64,000 nucleotides of DNA. It comes from Anaerolineae bacterium (GTDB lineage Bacteria; Chloroflexota; Anaerolineae; UBA1429). A program made the position numbers and the translations under genes. The notes below the pieces were generated by a model. The model did no database searches and had not been told where the DNA came from. It saw only the letters and a program-made list of their open reading frames with translations. The DNA lies in the NCBI GenBank assembly GCA_963675785.1, contig OY776562.1, positions 2,400,001-2,464,000 on the forward strand, given 5' to 3'. Below, piece by piece: positions 13,148 through 48,063 of this stretch. The stretch's first letter is position 1. Every line of letters starts with the position of its first letter.

Positions 13148-14350
13148 TTACTCGATGATCTTGGTGAGAACGCCCGAACCCACTGTGCGGCCGCCCTCTC
13201 GAATCGCAAAGTGCGAGCCTATCTCCAGCGCCACCGGCGTGATCAACTCTACTGTCAGGTTCGCATTGTCCCCCGGCATTACCATCTCTACGCCTTCGTC
13301 CAACCGCACTTCACCCGTTACGTCCATCGTCCGAATAAAGAACTGCGGACGATATCCATCAAAGAATGGCGTGTGACGCCCGCCTTCTTCCTTCTTCAAT
13401 ACGTATACTTCACCACGAAACGTCGTGTGCGGCGTGATCGACTTGGGCGCTGCCAGTACCTGCCCGCGCTCTACCTGCTCTCGATCTATGCCTCGCAGCA
13501 AACAACCTACGTTGTCTCCTGCCTGCCCCTGCTGCAGTGTCTTGCGGAACATCTCTACACCCGTCACTACTGTCTGACGTATGTCTTCTCGCAAACCCAC
13601 GATCTCGACTGTGTCGCCAGTCTTTACCATGCCGCGATCAATTCGACCCGTCACTACCGTGCCGCGTCCCTTGATCCCAAATACGTCCTCAATCGGCATC
13701 AGGAACGGACGATCGACTTCTCGCACCGGCGTCGGTATGTAGCTGTCTACTGCATCCATCAGCTCCAAGATCGGCGCATAGATCGGATCGTTGATATCTG
13801 TCGACTCGCACTCCAATACATCTAGCGCTGACCCGCGAATGATGGGAATGTCGTCGCCAGGAAACTCATAGTCCGTCAGCAGCTCGCGCAGCTCCAGCTC
13901 TACCAGTTCCAGCAACTCTTCGTCATCCATCATGTCGCACTTGTTCAAGAACACTACCATCGCCGGCACTTCTACCTGCCTCGCCAGCAAGATGTGCTCT
14001 CGCGTCTGTGGCATCGGCCCGTCTGGCGCACTTACTACCAGAATCGCTCCGTCCATCTGCGCCGCACCCGTAATCATGTTCTTGATATAGTCCGCGTGAC
14101 CCGGGCAGTCTACGTGCGCATAATGACGATTGTCTGTCTCGTACTCAACGTGCGAAATCGCTATCGTCAGTCCTCGCGCTTTTTCTTCCGGCGCGTTGTC
14201 GATTTGATCATACGCTTGAAACTTGGCATCACCCTTCATCGCCAATACTTTGGTGATCGCCGCTGTCAGTGATGTCTTCCCATGGTCTACGTGCCCAATC
14301 GTACCAATGTTTACGTGTGGCTTGGTACGCTCGAATACCTGCTTCGCCAT
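13148..14350 (-). CDS. tuf: Elongation factor Tu
   Basis: [27 protein letters not shown]. Confidence 0.99.
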
Positions 14351-14420
14351 CCTAATCCCCTTTCAGGTGCCGAGATCATACTCAGGCACGCGTCCACTGT
14401 TTTACAAGAGAAACCGACGA

Positions 14421-14449
14421 ATTATAACTGAACTATCTCGACAGCCCAA
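14421..14449 (-). promoter_or_regulatory. Putative sigma70 promoter for tuf and the S10 cluster
   Basis: Minus strand TTGGGC-17 bp-TATAAT in the fusA-tuf spacer. Confidence 0.6.
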
Positions 14450-14472
14450 AACGACGGACCGTACTGTAAAAT

Positions 14473-16572
14473 TTACCGATACTGGCTGATCGGACCACCC
14501 AAGATGCGTTCCACCACGTCATCGGGGGCAGGTTCATAATGATCAAACTCCATTGTAAATGCCCCACGCCCCTGAGTTGAAGATCGTATATCCGTTGCGT
14601 AACCAAACATCCCAGATAGAGGGACAAATCCATCAATGGCTTGCGTTTCGCCCGGTTGTGGCTGCATCGCCACGATCTCGCCTCGCCTACTGGTGAGATC
14701 CCCGATTACATCGCCCGTGTTCTCAGCGGGCACCGTAATCTCGACCTTCATAACAGGCTCCATCAAAGTAGGCATACCCTTACGAAGTGCCTGCTGAAAA
14801 GCCAGGGAAGCGGCTCGATAAAACGCTGCCTCGGTCGATTCTCCTTCATAAAACGTGCCATCGAGCAATGTAGCGGCGACGTTTACCAACGGATAACCAG
14901 CTAGAATCCCTGAGCTGAGAGAATCTCGCACAGCGTCCTCGACCACCTTGACCATGGTGGGCGGTACAGCCGTCTTGGAAGCTTCATTCGTAAAGATGAA
15001 TTTATCACCACCGGATGAAGGAAACACTTTGAGCACTACACGTGCCGACATGACTTTGGCACCGTGCTGGATGTGACTGTCCTCTTCACCAGTAGCAATC
15101 TTTCTTATCGTCTCTCGATAAGCAACCTGCGGCCGCCCTACTTTGGCATCGACATGGAATTCGCGCCGCACCCGCTCAACGAGAATCTCGAGGTGAAGCT
15201 CACCCATACCCGAGATGATTGTCTGGCCGGTATTCTCATCGATTGAGACCCTAAAAGTTGGGTCCTCTTCAGCAAGAGTTTCCAAAGCGGCAGCCAATTT
15301 TTTCTCGTCTGCTGCACTGCGGGGCTCGATGGCCACACGAATCACAGGCTCTGGGAAGCGGATTGCCTCCAAAAGGACAGGATTACTGGGGTCACACAGG
15401 GTCTCGCCAGTAAAGGTGAACTTGAGTCCGCCTACAGCAGCGATATCGCCTGCGGAGACCATGTCCACATCTTCACGACGCGATGCATAAACGTAGGTAA
15501 GGTGCCCAATGCGTTCTTTGCGAGACTTGATGGGGTTATATGTAGAAGAGTTCGAGGAAAGGGTGCCGGAGTAGACGCGCATGTAGGCTAACCTGCCCAA
15601 AAAGGGGTCCGTCACAATCTTGAAAACGAGCGCTGAAAAAGGCGCATCGGGATCCGCAGCACGCGATACTTTGTCGCCTGTGCGCGGATCCACCCCCATA
15701 ATAGAGGGGACCTCAAGAGGTGAAGGTAAATAGTCTACAATAGCGTCAAGAACCGGCTGTACGCCCTTGTTGCGCAGTGAAGCCCCCGCCAGAACAGGCA
15801 CTAGCCTGCCATCCAGAGTGGCCTTTCGAAGGCCAAAGCGCAATTCCTCAGAACTCAACTCCTCACCATCGAGATACTTGGCAAGAAACTCATCGTCAGT
15901 TTCAGCAACTGCCTCGACGAGCGCCTCACGCACTGCCGACACTTGTTCAACAAGGTCAGCAGGTATCTCGCGTTTCTCCGGGTCCAGTCCCAGCTCATCT
16001 GTCCAGATAAGCGCGACCTGGTCGATAACATCGACCACACCGGAAAAGGAAGCCTCAGCTCCAATAGGCACCTGTATTGCCACAGGTACAGCTTGAAGGC
16101 GATCTCGAATTGTATCAATCGAGCGCCAAAAATCGGCTCCTGTACGGTCCATCTTGTTAATGAAGCAGACACGAGGAACATGAAAACGATCTGCTTGCCG
16201 CCAAACCGTTTCGGATTGCGGCTCTACACCATGAACGGCATCAAATACGACTACGCCCCCATCCAGCACACGCAAGGAACGCTGAACTTCGGCAGTAAAA
16301 TCGATATGGCCGGGTGTATCAATGATGTTAATGCGATGATCACGCCAAAAACATGTTACTGCCGCAGATGCAATCGTGATCCCGCGTTCGCGTTCCTGCT
16401 CCATGAAATCCGTGACAGTCGTACCGTCATCTACGTTACCCAAGCGATGCGTTCGCCCGGTATAAAACAGAATACGCTCAGTTGTTGTCGTTTTGCCCGC
16501 ATCAATATGGGCTATGATCCCAATATTGCGAACACGACCTAGTTCAACGTCCCGGCTCACCACCGTGGTCAT
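14473..16572 (-). CDS. fusA: Elongation factor G family protein with divergent domain IV
   Basis: [38 protein letters not shown]; str-operon position. Confidence 0.93.
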
Positions 16573-16651
16573 CTCTGCTCCTGCCAGTATGTATTGCTAT
16601 GGACGCCAAGCGAGACACCAGATAGCTGAACCGCGCCGGTAGATTCAAAGG

Positions 16652-17122
16652 CTACCAGCGGAAATGGGCAAACGCCTTGTTCGCTTCAGCCATGCGATGT
16701 GTGTCTTCACGCTTTTTGACTGCTGAACCCGCATTATTAGCAGCATCCAACAGCTCAGCCGCAAGTTTATCAGCAAAAGTTTTGCCGTTGCGACTACGGG
16801 CTGCATTCAACAACCACCTCATCGCCAAAGACGTGCGGCGCTGCGGGCCCACTTCTACAGGCACCTGGTACGTTGCACCACCCACTCGGCGAGGTTTAAC
16901 CTCGATAGTAGGAGCAATGTTATCCATGGCCTGCTCAAAAACATCAATCGATGCCTTACCTGTTCGCTCAGATACCAAGTCAAGCGCATCATAAACGATG
17001 CCGCGAGCCGTGCTCTTTTTGCCATCAACCATTACATTGTTGATAAACTTGGCAAGAAGCTCACTGTTGTACTTGGGATCAGGCGCAACTACCCGGCGTT
17101 CGGGTCGGTAGCGTCTCGGCAT
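16652..17122 (-). CDS. rpsG: 30S ribosomal protein S7
   Basis: [23 protein letters not shown]. Confidence 0.98.
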
Positions 17123-17210
17123 TACTACACCCTCCGATAGATTGTGCCCAAGCCCCGCCCAAATGGCGGGAAGAGCAACCTAATCGCGGGCAACAACCCG
17201 CGCGATATTC

Positions 17211-17630
17211 CTAACGACGAGGACGTTTTGTTCCGTACTGGGAACGACCACGACCACGACCCTCAACGCCAGCTGCATCCAGCGTACCACGAACGATGTG
17301 ATAGCGAACACCAGGCAAGTCACGGACACGACCACCGCGCACAAGCACCACAGAGTGCTCTTGCAGGTTATGCCCTTCACCGGGGATATAGGCGGTAACT
17401 TCCACACCATTGGACAACCGAACACGGGCAATCTTACGAAGTGCCGAGTTCGGTTTCTTGGGCGTTACCGTGCTTACGCGTGTACATACACCACGTCGCT
17501 GCGGAGCACCTTTTTCCGAACGCGTCACAGTACCCTTTTGGCCGTTGAGGTTATAGCTCAACGCAGGCGCATTGGATTTCTTTGTTGTGCGCTTGCGGCC
17601 CTTTCGCACGAGCTGGTTAATCGTTGGCAA
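17211..17630 (-). CDS. rpsL: 30S ribosomal protein S12
   Basis: [30 protein letters not shown]. Confidence 0.98.
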
Positions 17631-17683
17631 AGCAATCCTCCCTGGTTCCTTTTACGCGAGCTTTTCACTACTCACGAAGTATG

Positions 17684-17712
17684 AGTATATCCTGTCATCT
17701 ATTTCCTGTCAA
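17684..17712 (-). promoter_or_regulatory. Near-consensus sigma70 promoter of the str operon
   Basis: Minus strand TTGACA-17 bp-TATACT between the rpoB stop and rpsL. Confidence 0.85.
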
Positions 17713-17735
17713 AACAGGTCAGAGCAACGCCAAGC

Positions 17736-20700
17736 TCAGCGCATTGAGGCGCCAAAGCCCAGCCCCAAGCCCAGATTAGGCATAGTTGCAGCAGTATCAT
17801 CGTGCTTGAGCGAGACTTCTGCCCCATCGTCATCATACACGTGCACCGCCAACCCCAAGCCCTGAAGCTCTTTGATCAAGACACTGAACGATTCGGGAAC
17901 GCCGGCATCTTCGATGGGCTCTCCCTTGACGATAGCCTCATAGGTCTTGACTCGCCCCACTACATCGTCAGACTTGATGGTAAGCATCTCTTGCAGTGTG
18001 TGCGCGGCACCATAAGCCTCCAACGCCCACACTTCCATCTCGCCAAAACGCTGCCCACCAAACTGTGCCTTGCCACCCAACGGCTGCTGAGTAACCAACG
18101 AGTACGGGCCAGTAGAACGGGCATGAATTTTGTCCTGCACAAGGTGGTTCAGCTTGAGCATGTAAATGATGCCGACTGTAACTGGGCGATCAAACGTCTG
18201 GCCGGTTTTGCCATCATACAGCACCATCTTGCCGCTGGTGGGGAGTGCTGCCCCCATCTCTTTCGCCTTGGTAAGAGCCTGCTGACTTGTTTGATCGCGA
18301 GAAAGACCCTCGACATCAACGCCTTCGTCCTGAAGCCAGACGCGCAGGCAAATCTCGGTAGCATAAGTATCTACGGCTTCTCGATGAGCTATCGATGCTT
18401 TCTCATCCTCGTACATAAGTGCGTCGGCGGGGTTGTATCCCTTTTCAGCAAGCCAGCGGCTCAACCAGAAACGGCGCACACGAACCTCATCGCCAAACAG
18501 CGAGTCAATCTCGCTAAAACTCATGCCTTCTGCACCGAGCAGCCCGCCCAGATAGTTAAGCACGACTTCCGAGTCATCTCGCATAAGCGTGGTGTCGATC
18601 TCATCCTCGACCACCCAATCCCAGGCGCGAACATGCAGGTCGGCCCAGGCGCGATCCATGAGCCAAGCACGGGCCAACTCGGAGGCAATCTCATCCTCAC
18701 TGGCACCATCAGAAACCGGCGTCATTACCTTAAAGCCAAGTCGCTCTGCGGCCCAACCAAGGTGGGTCTCCAGAATCTGGCCTACGTTCATACGGCCAGG
18801 CACGCCCAGCGGGTTCAGAATAATCTGGACCGGCGTACCATCAGAAAGATAAGGCATATCCTCAATGGGAACGATGCCCGAGATAACGCCCTTGTTTCCG
18901 TGGCGACCAGCAATCTTGTCGCCTTGAACGATCTTGCGGCGCTGAGCCACGGCAACACGAACCATCTTTTCAACACCGGCAGCAAGGTCCTGGTTATCGT
19001 CACGTGTAAACACATTGACTTCGACAACCTTGCCTTCTTCGCCATGAGGCAGTTTAAGGGAGGAATCCTTCACCTCGCGCGCCTTTTCACCAAAGATCGC
19101 GCGCAAGAGCTTTTCCTCAGGTGTCAATTCGGTTTCACCCTTGGGGGTAATCTTACCGACCAAGATGTCGCCAGGACTTACTGAAGCGCCGACATAAATG
19201 ATGCCGTCTTCATCCAGATTACGCAGGGCATCTTCACCCACGTTCGGGATGTCACGTGTGATCTCTTCGGGGCCGAGCTTGGTGTCGCGGGCCTCAACCT
19301 CGTGCTTTTCGATGTGGATGGAGGTAAACATGTCCTTGCGAACACAATCCTCGCTCACAACGATAGCATCCTCATAGTTGCCGCCCTCCCAGGACATGAA
19401 CGCGCAAAGCACGTTTTGCCCAAGGGCTAGCTCACCATCTTCGGTGGCCATAGCATCAGCCAAGGCATCGCCCTTGCGAACTATGTCCCCTCGGTTTACG
19501 AGAGGTGTCTGATCCACACAGGTAGACTGGTTAGAACGAGCAAACCGGCGCAATTTGTAGACGCGCTCGCCGCTCTCCCCCTCTACCACAATCTCTTCAC
19601 CACTGGCATGCTTTACCCGGCCATCTTCAAGAGCCAACACAACCTGACCCGAGTCGACAGCAGCACGCGCTTCCATGCCCGTTCCCACAACAGGAGAGTT
19701 CGCATTCAACAACGGAACAGCCTGACGCTGCATGTTTGAGCCCATCAGAGCGCGGTTTGCATCGTCATGGTCCAAGAAGGGAATCAGAGCCGCAGAAACA
19801 CCGAACACCTGCTTGGGTGAAACGTCCATATGCATCACGCGATCGACATTTTCGATCACAAACTTGTCATAGTAGCGCGCCGAAACACGATCACCGATGA
19901 ACTGATCTAGCTCATCGAGCTCAGAGTTGGCCTGAGCCACAACGGAATTCTCTTCTTCATCAGCCGAAAGATAGAGAACGCGATCAGTTGCGTAGGGGTG
20001 TACGCGGAAAGACTCGCGATCCAAGGCGGCAAGCGCCTCGGCAGCTGCTTCCGTAATCACATCGCCGCTTTGGATAATAGTCTCGCCATTAGCATCCGAA
20101 ACAGACTCACGAATGGTACGGCCAACAAGAAAATCCTTGTCGTTCGGTGCTTCGTGTGCCACAACGCGATAGGGCGTCTCGATAAAGCCATAGTCATTGA
20201 TTTCAGCAAAGGTGGCCAAACGCACGATCAAACCGATGTTCGGGCCTTCGGGCGTCTCTACCGGACAAATGCGGCCATAGTGAGAATAGTGCACGTCGCG
20301 CACATCAAAGCCGGCGCGCTCACGACGCAAGCCGCCAGGCCCCAAAGCCGAAAGCGTGCGCTTGTGCGTCAATTCATCCAGCGGGTTGTGCTGGCTCATG
20401 AACTGAGAAAGCTGACTGCCACCAAAGAACTCGCGAACTACAGCAACAACTGGTCGAATGTTGATCAGCGAAACCGGCGAAACCTGTTCTTGATCGTGCG
20501 TGCTCATACGCTCGCGCACAACGCGCTCGGTTCGCAAAAAGCCCACACGAAGCTGATTCTGCAAAAGCTCGCCCATCGTCTTGATTCGGCGGTTGCCCAA
20601 ATGGTCGATATCATCCGGTTCGGCAAGACCGTTATCAATGCGAATAATGCGCTTGACCAGCTCGAGCACATCGCGCTTGGTTAGCGTACGAATCGCAAAG

Positions 20701-45265: not shown

Positions 45266-46358
45266 TTATAAAGACGATATCACTGACCTGACGCCCGCCG
45301 CTGGCCGGTTGATCGGCAATTTCACCTTCAAATGTCATAACTGAAGATTTGCCGCCATCAAGGTTATAGGCCACGGAAAGCCCCATGTCTTCCATAAGTG
45401 ATGCCAGTGTTTTGAGGGTCATTCCCACCGAATAGCCATCCTGCCGCCCATCAACAACCACAAAACAGTAGTGACCCGGTTCATAATATCCAATGACGGT
45501 TCGGGGATTGATGTTGCTAATGTGCCCCGAGGCGAAATTCGTAAGAGCTTCTCCACTATCTGACAACAATGAAGGGCCAAAACTCCACGCCTGCCATGCA
45601 CCAGATGCCATTGCCTCGTCGGCATCAAACTCATCCTCAGAATAGACCACCATTGTGCCGTCAGAGTAGAGCACACAAACATCACCGCTTACGCTCGAAC
45701 GGTAAAGAATACCATTTCTTATCACGACACTGCTCGACCCTGTACCATAGTAATCACCGTTTATCGCAGCAATGGCATTGTTATCCTCAGCCATATTGAG
45801 CACCCAATCAGTGATTGATCTGCCATAGGTATCGTCGGCAAAGGCTGTACGCAGATATTCTATGCTACGAATATAGATGTCCTCGACGTAATAAGTTACA
45901 CCGCCACTTTGTACAGAAGTGAGCGTTATATTCACATTCTCGCTCATGTACGTAGAATCGGTGGTTATCACCTCTCCGTCGGTAAACTTGTCGGCAAATT
46001 TCACACCCCAATCCTCAGTATCAGAAGTGACGACTGCCTCTTTGGTAGATACATCCACCGAAGCATCAGGCGACGTATCCGATGCATCAGATGCGACTGT
46101 TGGGCTAGGTGTAACACTCACCTCAGCAATCGCCGTAGGAGATACTATATTCTCAATCGTATCGGCCTGGACAGAAGTAAGTTGTGACACAGAAACAAAT
46201 GAACTCGTCTTGGATAGATCTGTCGATATTTTCTGTGGTATGACAAGGTCAAATAACATATAAATGCCGAGTGAGACCACAATAAGCAGAATATCGATTA
46301 CGGCCATTTTGGCCGGGGAAGAACTCTTTTTCTTGTTTGGTATTTTAGTATCATCCAT
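45258..46358 (-). CDS. Membrane-anchored phosphodiester glycosidase family protein (NAGPA/DUF2233-like)
   Basis: AINGDYY, SFGP, NPRTVIG, VVDGR, AYNLDGGKS; N-terminal TM and S/T-rich linker; GGAGG SD. Confidence 0.85.
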   Translation of the reverse strand: MDDTKIPNKKKSSSPAKMAVIDILLIVVSLGIYMLFDLVIPQKISTDLSKTSSFVSVSQLTSVQADTIENIVSPTAIAEVSVTPSPTVASDASDTSPDASVDVSTKEAVVTSDTEDWGVKFADKFTDGEVITTDSTYMSENVNITLTSVQSGGVTYYVEDIYIRSIEYLRTAFADDTYGRSITDWVLNMAEDNNAIAAINGDYYGTGSSSVVIRNGILYRSSVSGDVCVLYSDGTMVVYSEDEFDADEAMASGAWQAWSFGPSLLSDSGEALTNFASGHISNINPRTVIGYYEPGHYCFVVVDGRQDGYSVGMTLKTLASLMEDMGLSVAYNLDGGKSSVMTFEGEIADQPASGGRQVSDIVFISE

Positions 46359-46359
46359 A

Positions 46360-47424
46360 TCAGGCGCCTCCGAGTTCAATCTTTCTAAAAACGAATCGCC
46401 TTTGCGCAACGTAGCTAAGAGCGAATAGTATCAATTCTACGCCAAGTTTGGCGATCCAAAGCGGTACCGAGAGAAGAACATTCAGCAAATACAGCATCAA
46501 ATAGTTGATGCTGAGGATAAGGGCTGCCAAGGTGTAATAGCGAAGAGCCGCCGTCCATATCTGACCATCATCATGAAACACAAGCTGCTTATTCGCCAGA
46601 AAATTGACCAGCGAGCTGATCAGACGGGCACACACAACGCTGATCAGTAGTGAAGCCGCTTCTGCCATGCCTAAAGTCAGTGACTTGAAAACCAGAAGAA
46701 GCGTGAAATCTAGGGCAAACGCACTGAATGATGATAGCGCGAATTTAAGAATACAAGAATAAATTCTTATGGAATCCCACATGGCATTGAAATGCGAAGA
46801 GGCGTTATTCTCAAAATAAACCGTTTCTATCTTGATTTCGTGTATCTCGATCCTTTCTCTGACCGCCCAAAGCAATACATTCATCTCATACTCGTAGCGC
46901 TCACCATCCACATTGAGCAGATCGGGTATCAGGTCCGCGCTAAAAGCGCAAAGTCCAGTTTGCGTGTCCATAAGCCTTTTGCCGCTGGTAGCAGCAAATA
47001 CATACCGCGTCAACGTATTCCCAAATCGGCTGCGAAGTGGCACCTCGCCTTCAAAATGGCGGCTGCCGAGTACCAAAGAGGCGCCCTGATCATTCAGAGA
47101 TTCGCTTACCTTTTTGATATCCTCCGGGCGATGCTGTCCATCCGCATCTGCCGTTACCACCCCCCTGCAATCGGGGAGATTCTGGCGGATATAGGTTAGG
47201 CCGGTCTTGAGAGCACGACCCTTTCCGCGATTATAAGGGTGTGAAAGAAGGATAACCTCGGGGGGCAGCCTGGCGAACACATCATCAAACGCACTTCCGC
47301 TGCCATCGTTTACCACGACTAGAGTAAATCGTTCTTTGAGCAACAAATCCGCAAGTACTATTAACTCATTGGTCGGCTTGTAAGCCGGGATTAGTACGAT
47401 GTGCCTTTCTTCGCCACATCCCAT
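46360..47424 (-). CDS. Bifunctional GT2 glycosyltransferase / GtrA flippase fusion
   Basis: LIPAYKP, VNDGS, NRGKGRALK, DADGQH, DTQTGL; C-terminal 4-TM GtrA domain. Confidence 0.88.
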   Translation of the reverse strand: MGCGEERHIVLIPAYKPTNELIVLADLLLKERFTLVVVNDGSGSAFDDVFARLPPEVILLSHPYNRGKGRALKTGLTYIRQNLPDCRGVVTADADGQHRPEDIKKVSESLNDQGASLVLGSRHFEGEVPLRSRFGNTLTRYVFAATSGKRLMDTQTGLCAFSADLIPDLLNVDGERYEYEMNVLLWAVRERIEIHEIKIETVYFENNASSHFNAMWDSIRIYSCILKFALSSFSAFALDFTLLLVFKSLTLGMAEAASLLISVVCARLISSLVNFLANKQLVFHDDGQIWTAALRYYTLAALILSINYLMLYLLNVLLSVPLWIAKLGVELILFALSYVAQRRFVFRKIELGGA

Positions 47425-47628
47425 AGATTCTTCTCCAACCCTGCTTTCCTATCACAGTCGCTATTAACTTGATCTTTGGTTCAAGTATAGAAAGCAGTTG
47501 TTTAGAACAGTGCAAGAAAAAATGAATTTATCAAGTACTGTGCCTGAAAGAGTTGATTTCGTGCGCCCTGTACAATACGATCGAGAAAGACTGGCTTACC
47601 AAGACGTCCTGACACATAAGGAGATGCT

Positions 47629-48063
47629 GTGGGGGAAAATGCTTTGCACAATGTTCGTCAGGCTGTACCCTTCTTCTGGGTGCAGGACATGCAGCGGTCG
47701 CTCGCGTTTTATGTTAGCAATCTCGAATTCAACGTGGATCAAAAGTGGATTATCGATGGCAGAATTCGTTGGTGTTGGCTAAAACTCGGCAGCGCATCTT
47801 TGATGCTGCAAGAATTTGACGAGCATGGAGAACACACCCTGCCCGTTGGCCCCCTAGGCCAGGGTGTGGAAATATGTTTTATCTGTCAGAATGCTTTGAC
47901 GATTTACCAAAAAGTCCAAAATAAGGAGGTCGAGTTTTCTAGGCCTTTTGTGGGGAATGGTATGTGGATTACAGAAATTTCGGATCCGGATGGATACAGA
48001 CTCTTTTTTGAAAGCCCTACGGACATGCCTGAAGAAACTGTTTACAGGGGGACGGGAGTATGA
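47629..48063 (+). CDS. VOC/glyoxalase family protein
   Basis: VQDMQRSLAFY...DPDGYRL; GTG start after AAGGAG. Confidence 0.8.
   Translation: MGENALHNVRQAVPFFWVQDMQRSLAFYVSNLEFNVDQKWIIDGRIRWCWLKLGSASLMLQEFDEHGEHTLPVGPLGQGVEICFICQNALTIYQKVQNKEVEFSRPFVGNGMWITEISDPDGYRLFFESPTDMPEETVYRGTGV

Follow-up and report, generated by a model that had tools for sequence, protein, structure and literature searches.

A str-operon elongation factor G with a substituted domain IV tip, and a canonical-tip paralog, in an Anaerolineae bacterium

The window analysed here is a 64,000-nucleotide stretch of the genome of an Anaerolineae bacterium of the phylum Chloroflexota (contig OY776562.1, positions 2,400,001 to 2,464,000). 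Its str operon contains fusA, the gene for elongation factor G (EF-G). We found that the encoded protein, here called the str copy, has substitutions in all three conserved segments of the domain IV tip, and that the same genome encodes elsewhere a second EF-G of the EFG-I type, paralog B, with a canonical tip. Judged by its sequence, the str copy is an EFG-I by descent and architecture, and by its tip it is not a canonical translocase. On balance, we lean slightly toward the view that, while still a functional GTPase, it has ceased to be the main translocase, and that it probably splits ribosomes together with ribosome recycling factor (RRF) while B would translocate.

The domain IV tip and the EF-G paralogs

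The str copy aligns without gaps to the solved EF-G of Thermus thermophilus, and the three stretches in question pair with VEGKFIRQTGGRGQYGHV, NAIVGGVIP, and YDGSYHEVDSSE of that protein. In the first, Thermus Q500-T501-G502-G503 corresponds to Q-H-G-A, with Ala in place of G503. In the second, which contains the middle GG motif that we take to be located at the domain IV tip, GGxIP has become KTAVP. In the third, SYHEVDSSE pairs with TFYEGESTE, so that H573 corresponds to Tyr575, while the terminal S-T-E is retained. An earlier note on this DNA, made from the sequence without database searches, had quoted these stretches, and they are indeed present, all within positions 14790-15120. Its observation that the QxGG motif, the GG motif, and the SYH histidine are replaced while the G domain and domains III and V are intact is confirmed by the Thermus alignment and by Pfam, and domain II is intact as well. 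However, it had described the loops as lost. The motifs are instead substituted at unchanged length, with no deletion in the alignment, and the AlphaFold2 model retains the β-hairpin of loop I, with strands 493-503 and 506-518 and a turn at G504-A505. This model, based on a 43-row alignment, has a mean predicted local distance difference test score of 85.5, with values of 81-94 in domain IV. Neither Pfam nor the Thermus alignment revealed a new domain or insertion. The remainder of domain IV, beyond the loops, is also somewhat relaxed. The EF-2 family is also described with three loops in domain IV (Narrowe 2018, PMC6143161).

The Pfam domains GTP_EFTU, EF-G_D2, EFG_III, EFG_IV, and EFG_C are all found in the str copy, which scores 919.7 bits against the NCBIfam EF-G equivalog model TIGR00484 and thus passes its cut-off of 659.4. 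The EFG_IV match is weaker than those of two paralogs, 137.9 and 142.4 bits. The G1-G4 motifs, RGITI, and the catalytic His of DTPGH are all present, and the GTPase motifs are invariant across the 43-row alignment A1.

The source genome is a single closed contig of 3,217,757 bases, estimated to be 94.8% complete. Further EF-G genes had been predicted in the earlier note, which held that its proposal would fail if this were the only one. A search with the str EF-G protein gave two more at full length, for a total of three, and this objection therefore has no force for the source genome. Paralog B lies outside the ribosomal operons, and its tip, with KQTGGHGQF, FGGAIP, and DGKFHEVDSSE, is canonical. 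The third gene encodes an EFG-II with the motifs GHGSSGKT, DAPGY, and KKQTGGRGQF; the hallmarks given for EFG-II (Margus 2011) are a GHxxxGKT variant of the P-loop, the absence of RGITI, and a loop I with a basic KKQTGG. The str copy, with AHIDAGKT and RGITI, has neither the P-loop variant nor the RGITI loss, and judged by sequence both it and B are EFG-I. Against the sequences in the PDB, the str copy and B score 819 and 830 bits with Thermus EF-G, 526 and 500 bits with the mitochondrial EF-G2 (EF-G2mt, 7l20_w), and 502 and 556 bits with EF-G1mt, respectively. The gene for RRF, frr, is present in one copy. In the EFG-II copies, both that of this genome and those at loci L240-L243, the catalytic His of DxPGH is Tyr (DAPGYTDF, DTPGYADF) and the tip is canonical.

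Conservation in the family and recurrence in the class

The His is absent from the full-length str copies of 21 of 21 genomes of the family, namely the source genome, 17 relatives, and three further genomes that show the same pattern. In a set of 18 other family members, every genome has a B-type match and a str-type match of 65-72% identity; in G010 the str match, of 77% identity, covers residues 8-415 only, as the sequence ends before domain IV. Canonical tip motifs are absent from all 17 full-length str copies in this set. B is full length in 14 of the 18 and is ended by contig ends in the other four, and with this reservation the trio of str copy, B, and EFG-II occurs in all 21 family genomes examined. 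G154 and G091, both of them closed genomes, contain three EF-Gs each and no more. An rpsG homologue adjoins the str-type EF-G at 18 of 18 family loci (the window's own, L001, and 17 of relatives, L011-L027) and also at 12 of 12 other loci (L028-L039), while rpsL, rpsG, or tuf is found near none of the seven loci with flanks of B or of the B' type described below.

Mean pairwise identities were obtained for each domain in the 14 genomes where both copies are complete. For the str copy and B, respectively, they are 0.81 and 0.71 in the G domain, 0.78 and 0.68 in domain II, 0.76 and 0.69 in domain III, 0.50 and 0.72 in domain IV, and 0.69 and 0.73 in domain V. In the same genomes, the consensus frequencies of the three tip segments are 0.61, 0.49, and 0.57 in the str copy and 0.88, 0.78, and 0.93 in B, while in the remaining domain IV they are 0.69 and 0.78. 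The ratio of nonsynonymous to synonymous substitution rates (dN/dS) by domain, a check that the earlier note had proposed, agrees with this pattern. By the Nei-Gojobori method, with values that are rough because dS was 0.6-2.9 where estimable, dN/dS in domain IV is 0.17-0.30 for five pairs of str copies (whole gene, 0.09-0.16; G domain, 0.06-0.14), 0.065-0.12 for three pairs of B (whole gene, 0.12-0.18), and 0.02-0.03 for three of four pairs of single-copy canonical EF-Gs (whole gene, 0.03-0.04), dS being saturated in the fourth, L091-L116. Even in domain IV of the str copy, the ratio stays far under 1. Judged by these identities, consensus frequencies, and ratios, the str copy is a constrained, functional protein, of which the tip, and to a lesser degree the entire domain IV, has been freed from constraint.

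The altered tip is not confined to the family. Of 151 genomes sampled evenly from the class (Anaerolineae-type) and requested at a completeness of at least 90%, 33 have at least two EFG-I-type matches at E ≤ 1e-190. Among 107 genomes from other classes of the phylum, there are at least two matches in two genomes, both of family f54, one in 95, and none in 10; one of the 95, the unpublished G197, enters no other result. A table of 86 genomes was then compiled. It draws on the str-like copies of all 33 two-copy genomes except three that belong to genus g20, on the second copies listed, on a single-copy genome from each of many families, and on five named metagenome-assembled genomes (MAGs) with odd loops. 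The rows were chosen rather than drawn at random, and the window's family supplies 21 of the 43 His-less two-copy genomes in the following counts. The His is lost in 43 of the 50 genomes with two EFG-I copies (15 lineages) and kept in seven (five lineages), while among the 36 genomes with one copy it is lost in five (families f11, f16, and f38) and kept in 31. The latter represent 31 lineages, that is, 30 coded families and one named MAG.

The other tip residues were compared in the same table. GG is retained in 29 of the 31 single-copy His-keepers and in 35 of all 38 His-keeping str copies, and all 31 B copies examined have both His and GG. None of the 48 His-less str copies still has the middle GG, and 16 of them retain loop I GG. 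The position of Escherichia coli S588 is nevertheless S or T in 40 of these 48, and that of E589 is E in 43. Because the His persists in 31 single-copy lineages, occurs in none of the 21 genomes of the family, and is accompanied in its absence by a low EFG_IV score, the tip alteration of the str copy is, on the evidence of these sequences, not a chance event. In a FastTree tree made without the domain IV columns, the His state changes at least 10 times, and six of these changes are forced by well-supported (starred) branches. The residue in the His573 column is Asp or Asn in 13 of 16 His-less lineages, a pattern that suggests convergence rather than drift.

The earlier note had also likened switch I of the str copy (LGNVDxG..TD) to that of mitochondrial EF-G2. 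All 31 B copies share this switch I, as do 23 of 31 single-copy canonical str EF-Gs, and it is thus a trait of the lineage. The str EF-G nests among the Chloroflexota str EF-Gs and not with mtEFG2 (526 bits, vs 819 for Thermus EF-G), in trees that were made without spdEFG2 sequences. The B clade has a support of 100 in two of these trees. It falls within a Chloroflexota polytomy in one, made with FastTree, and outside all sampled EFG-I, with a support of 88, in the other, a quick LG+G4 search with 62 rows. However, a tree in which B is joined to a 26-row Anaerolineae clade, which contains every tip-altered copy, has a log-likelihood 28.3 above that of the free LG+G4 tree (approximately unbiased test, p-AU 0.79). 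Since the likelihood of the constrained tree exceeds that of the free tree, we favour an origin of B inside the class, which may have occurred by duplication or by transfer between relatives.

Several other observations were made in the course of this comparison. A third EFG-I-like type, B', was found at L168 and L169 (G035, G034) and, in another class of the phylum, at L245 and L247 (G175, G187). It has AHVDAGKTTTSE, a switch I with ..TQLDWMEQE, and a canonical loop I and His, but has lost the middle GG; it is about 46-48% identical to B and takes a deep position on a long branch. Several str EF-G matches (e.g. in G133, G170, G111, and G046) contain one in-frame stop, and these stops probably fall where the alignment extends upstream of the true start. 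The MAG G116, which is considered below, has as relatives G038, with three EF-Gs, and G147, with two.

Genomic context

The positions of the features are collected in Table 1. A consensus scan of positions 14200-17900 gave one sigma-70-type match, the site upstream of rpsL, while 2.8 were expected from shuffled sequences. The earlier note had given tuf a promoter of its own, but the scan gave no match in the fusA-tuf spacer; by eye, the TATAAT there is preceded at 17 nt by a -35 element with 3/6 matches. The earlier note had also pointed to rare codons in places in fusA. Among its 44 Ile codons there are 5 ATA, and among its 53 Arg codons 5 AGR, which is about the genome average. The genome has a second full-length tuf, and the G+C content at 46001-48000 of the window is 0.466, compared with about 0.53 in the remainder.

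Table 1. Coordinates of the str-operon features in the window and of related genes elsewhere in the genome
Feature	Position	Strand	Remarks
fusA (str-operon EF-G, 'A type')	14473..16572	-	open reading frame, 699 residues, all five domains
G domain with G' insert, residues 13-284	15721..16536	-	Pfam; GTPase motifs including NKMD intact
Domain IV, residues 481-598	14779..15132	-	Pfam EFG_IV 96.6 bits; folded, fast-evolving
Loop I hairpin, residues 495-512	15037..15090	-	opposite Thermus RQTGGRGQYGH
Middle conserved motif, residues 528-537	14962..14991	-	ASKTAVP where canonical is IVGGVIP
His loop, residues 570-581 (Thermus 568-579, E. coli H583 loop)	14830..14865	-	His replaced by Y575
rpsL (S12), first gene of the str operon	17211..17630	-	open reading frame
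rpsG (S7), immediately 5' of fusA	16652..17122	-	open reading frame
tuf (EF-Tu), 3' of fusA	13148..14350	-	open reading frame
fusA-tuf spacer	14351..14472	-	TATAAT hexamer; weak hairpin across fusA stop
Promoter-like site 5' of rpsL	17684..17712	-	TTGACA-17-TATACT, 11/12 consensus match
Paralog B (EFG-I)	G000:C1:838853-840925		690 residues, 51% identical to str copy
EFG-II	C1:2085989-2088058 (L003:1471-3537)		689 residues, 37% identical to str copy
Second tuf	G000:C1:3076217-3077419		full length

In the source genome, B is flanked by a CarD-like gene (L002:760-1275) and by an Oxidored_q6 gene, which resembles that for a hydrogenase small subunit (L002:3683-4519). A conserved neighbourhood of B was considered and rejected, as the carD-like and Oxidored_q6 neighbours recur at none of 16 other B loci. 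RNA evidence was limited to a single metatranscriptome (as contigs) with a 0.05 share of words, too little for use.

Proposed roles of the two EFG-I copies

What would be the function of an EF-G with such a tip? From the anatomy, the paralogs, the conservation pattern, and the class-wide recurrence observed above, we infer a job for each copy. We propose that a duplication of EFG-I within this class gave rise to the str copy and B. B would have retained the tip that reaches the decoding centre (loop I GG, GGxIP, and the His573 loop), and would perform translocation. The str copy would still have its GTPase, the domains that bind the ribosome, and a domain IV that folds, while the constraint on the tip was released; most likely, it would keep a job for which the tip is not required, the splitting of post-termination ribosomes with the single RRF.

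In E. coli, deletion of loop I or the H583K mutation is reported to abolish translocation and to spare RRF-dependent disassembly, whereas S588P impairs disassembly, so that S588 matters there (Zhang 2015, PMC4666400). The recycling-only EF-G2mt and Borrelia EF-G2, which the earlier note had described as lacking the loops, each have one loop-1 Gly substituted, plus neighbouring changes, and domain IV of EF-G2mt pushes against domain II of RRF with its helices, not with its tip (Koripella 2021, PMC8203779). The str-operon EF-G1A of Pseudomonas aeruginosa is described as 75-fold weaker in poly(Phe) synthesis and as working with RRF (Palmer 2013, PMC3832671). Together with the sequence data, these three precedents make it most economical to suppose that B translocates and the str copy splits ribosomes. 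The idea of the earlier note that fusA has subfunctionalized is thus borne out insofar as a paralog exists and the conservation fits a functional copy without the tip; the recycling-only function we infer. In its strict form, that part of the idea meets counter-examples among the relatives, given next.

Several points weigh against this assignment. Deletion of the His loop abolishes recycling by E. coli EF-G, and tip mutants are dominant-negative when overexpressed (both Zhang 2015, PMC4666400); an EF-G with a dead tip that is made from the str promoter should thus do harm unless it avoids elongating ribosomes. The sequence of B has no visible defect that would bar it from recycling, which would leave the retention of the str copy unexplained. 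G116, a 94% complete MAG in 140 contigs, has one EF-G above the family cut-off, and this sole EF-G, which lies in an rpsL-rpsG-fusA-tuf cluster (G116:C53; L214, L239), is without His and GG. In family f11, the two genomes (91% and 92% complete) lack B and carry a tip-altered str copy with EFG-II as its only companion, and G147 likewise has only a His-less str copy and EFG-II; translocation there would fall either to EFG-II or still to the altered EF-G. It is improbable, in our estimation, that in some Anaerolineae the tip-altered str EF-G is the sole EFG-I (f11, G147) or even the sole EF-G (G116), so that translocation either runs there without the universally conserved His and GG of the tip or depends mainly on the enigmatic EFG-II, in which the catalytic His is Tyr. 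An independent-pairs test of copy number against His loss is underpowered, with six pairs (about two in the same direction, none or nearly none in the opposite direction, and about four equal; median p 0.5). Finally, codon adaptation relative to ribosomal-protein genes is uninformative. The percentiles are the 41st for the str copy, the 87th for B, and the 96th for EFG-II, but tuf itself is only at the 17th-22nd.

An alternative that we regard as unlikely, though one to be taken seriously, is that the str copy still serves as the housekeeping EF-G, in translocation and recycling alike, with a tip that is dispensable or replaced, and that B is an accessory, for example a condition-specific one. 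The str copy does stand in the str operon, behind its only strong promoter-like site, and B is the less conserved of the two in domains G, II, and III. The genomes of G116, f11, and G147 fit this alternative, as do the loop I GG that persists in some His-less copies and the nonrandom replacement of His by Asp or Asn. However, E. coli EF-G with mutations in loop I or loop II, like that with H583K, is reported to lose translocation (Zhang 2015, PMC4666400), and the single-copy str EF-Gs of 31 sampled lineages keep the His. Furthermore, tip decay is seen almost only where a canonical-tip EFG-I is also present, and the tip segments are poorly conserved, with no new fixed motif.

It is rather doubtful that the str copy has instead acquired a new ribosome-directed GTPase role, such as the rescue or protection of stalled or drug-bound ribosomes in the manner of Tet(M)/Tet(O), or else a role like that of the archaeal aEF-2p, and that B does both jobs of EF-G. 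B appears fully canonical and could do both, and the Tet proteins and aEF-2p are paralogs of EF-G and EF-2 without conservation of the residues at the domain IV tip (Narrowe 2018, PMC6143161). The convergent change of His to Asp or Asn also hints at selection for another tip chemistry. Nevertheless, the str copy scores only 421.2 bits against NCBIfam tet_protect, whose cut-off of 775 it does not reach, whereas it passed the EF-G equivalog model, and no domain or insertion has been added. The tip also varies between genera, with the consensus frequencies of 0.49-0.61 given above, which speaks for relaxation and against a new specific contact.

That the str copy is a decaying, functionless duplicate retained through an essential operon is hardly credible and already contradicted by the selection data, since, although domain IV is its least conserved part and its whole-gene dN/dS is 3-4 times that of single-copy EF-Gs, the frame is open at full length in all 21 family genomes examined, dN/dS is still low in the whole gene and the G domain, the GTPase motifs are invariant, and in domains G, II, and III its conservation exceeds that of B.

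The division of labour preferred here, with B as translocase and the str copy in ribosome splitting, has several parallels. P. aeruginosa likewise has two EFG-I-type paralogs, EF-G1A and EF-G1B, of which the str copy is a poor translocase acting with RRF, and the translocase is EF-G1B, encoded outside the str operon. However, that pair is 84% identical, with no loss of tip motifs described, while the Chloroflexota pair is 51% identical, and in the Chloroflexota str copy the His and the middle GG are gone, often together with loop I GG; the origin is independent. EF-G2mt and Borrelia burgdorferi EF-G2 (spdEFG2/mtEFG2) also share out the two jobs between paralogs (Koripella 2021, Margus 2011, Atkinson 2015). 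The str copy resembles them in its altered loop I Gly (GG to GA) and in the co-occurrence of a translocase-type paralog, here B, but it lies outside their clade, its tip change is far more extensive, and EFG-I is retained in its genome, whereas spd-type genomes are without EFG-I. In the archaeal aEF-2p, the GTPase motifs are conserved and the tip loops, including the diphthamide His, are not, and it was judged unlikely to be a translocase (PMC6143161). It belongs to another domain of life, in which recycling is by ABCE1 and not EF-2, and the divergent copy there is the extra gene, whereas in Chloroflexota it is the gene at the ancestral locus. Tet(M), Tet(O), and Tet(Q) are also five-domain GTPases derived from EF-G with a noncanonical domain IV tip; in contrast, the Chloroflexota gene belongs to the str operon, and its product shares about 59% identity with the canonical EF-Gs of its class.

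A full-text literature search gave no description of such a case in Chloroflexota, the supplementary per-genome tables of Margus 2011 and Atkinson 2015, which may list Chloroflexi duplicates, lying outside that search. Margus 2011 names Chloroflexi only in regard to an EFG-II motif, and it assumes that the str-operon copy is stable after duplication. The splitting of the EF-G jobs between paralogs is known; the variant in Chloroflexota arose independently, is more radical, and recurs.

EF-G is treated as a universal factor with two functions, and here the copy at the ancestral locus has relinquished the translocation tip. This is so in a whole family, and independent losses recur in no fewer than 15 lineages within a single class, nearly always beside a paralog with a canonical tip. 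These lineages would amount to a natural mutagenesis series on domain IV, in which the residues needed only for translocation would be the His, the middle GG, and often loop I GG, while the S/T-E that ends the His loop and the core of domain IV are still conserved. They also raise the puzzle of how a tip-dead EF-G made from the str operon avoids poisoning elongating ribosomes. For annotation, the lesson is that a fusA in the str operon need not encode the translocase.

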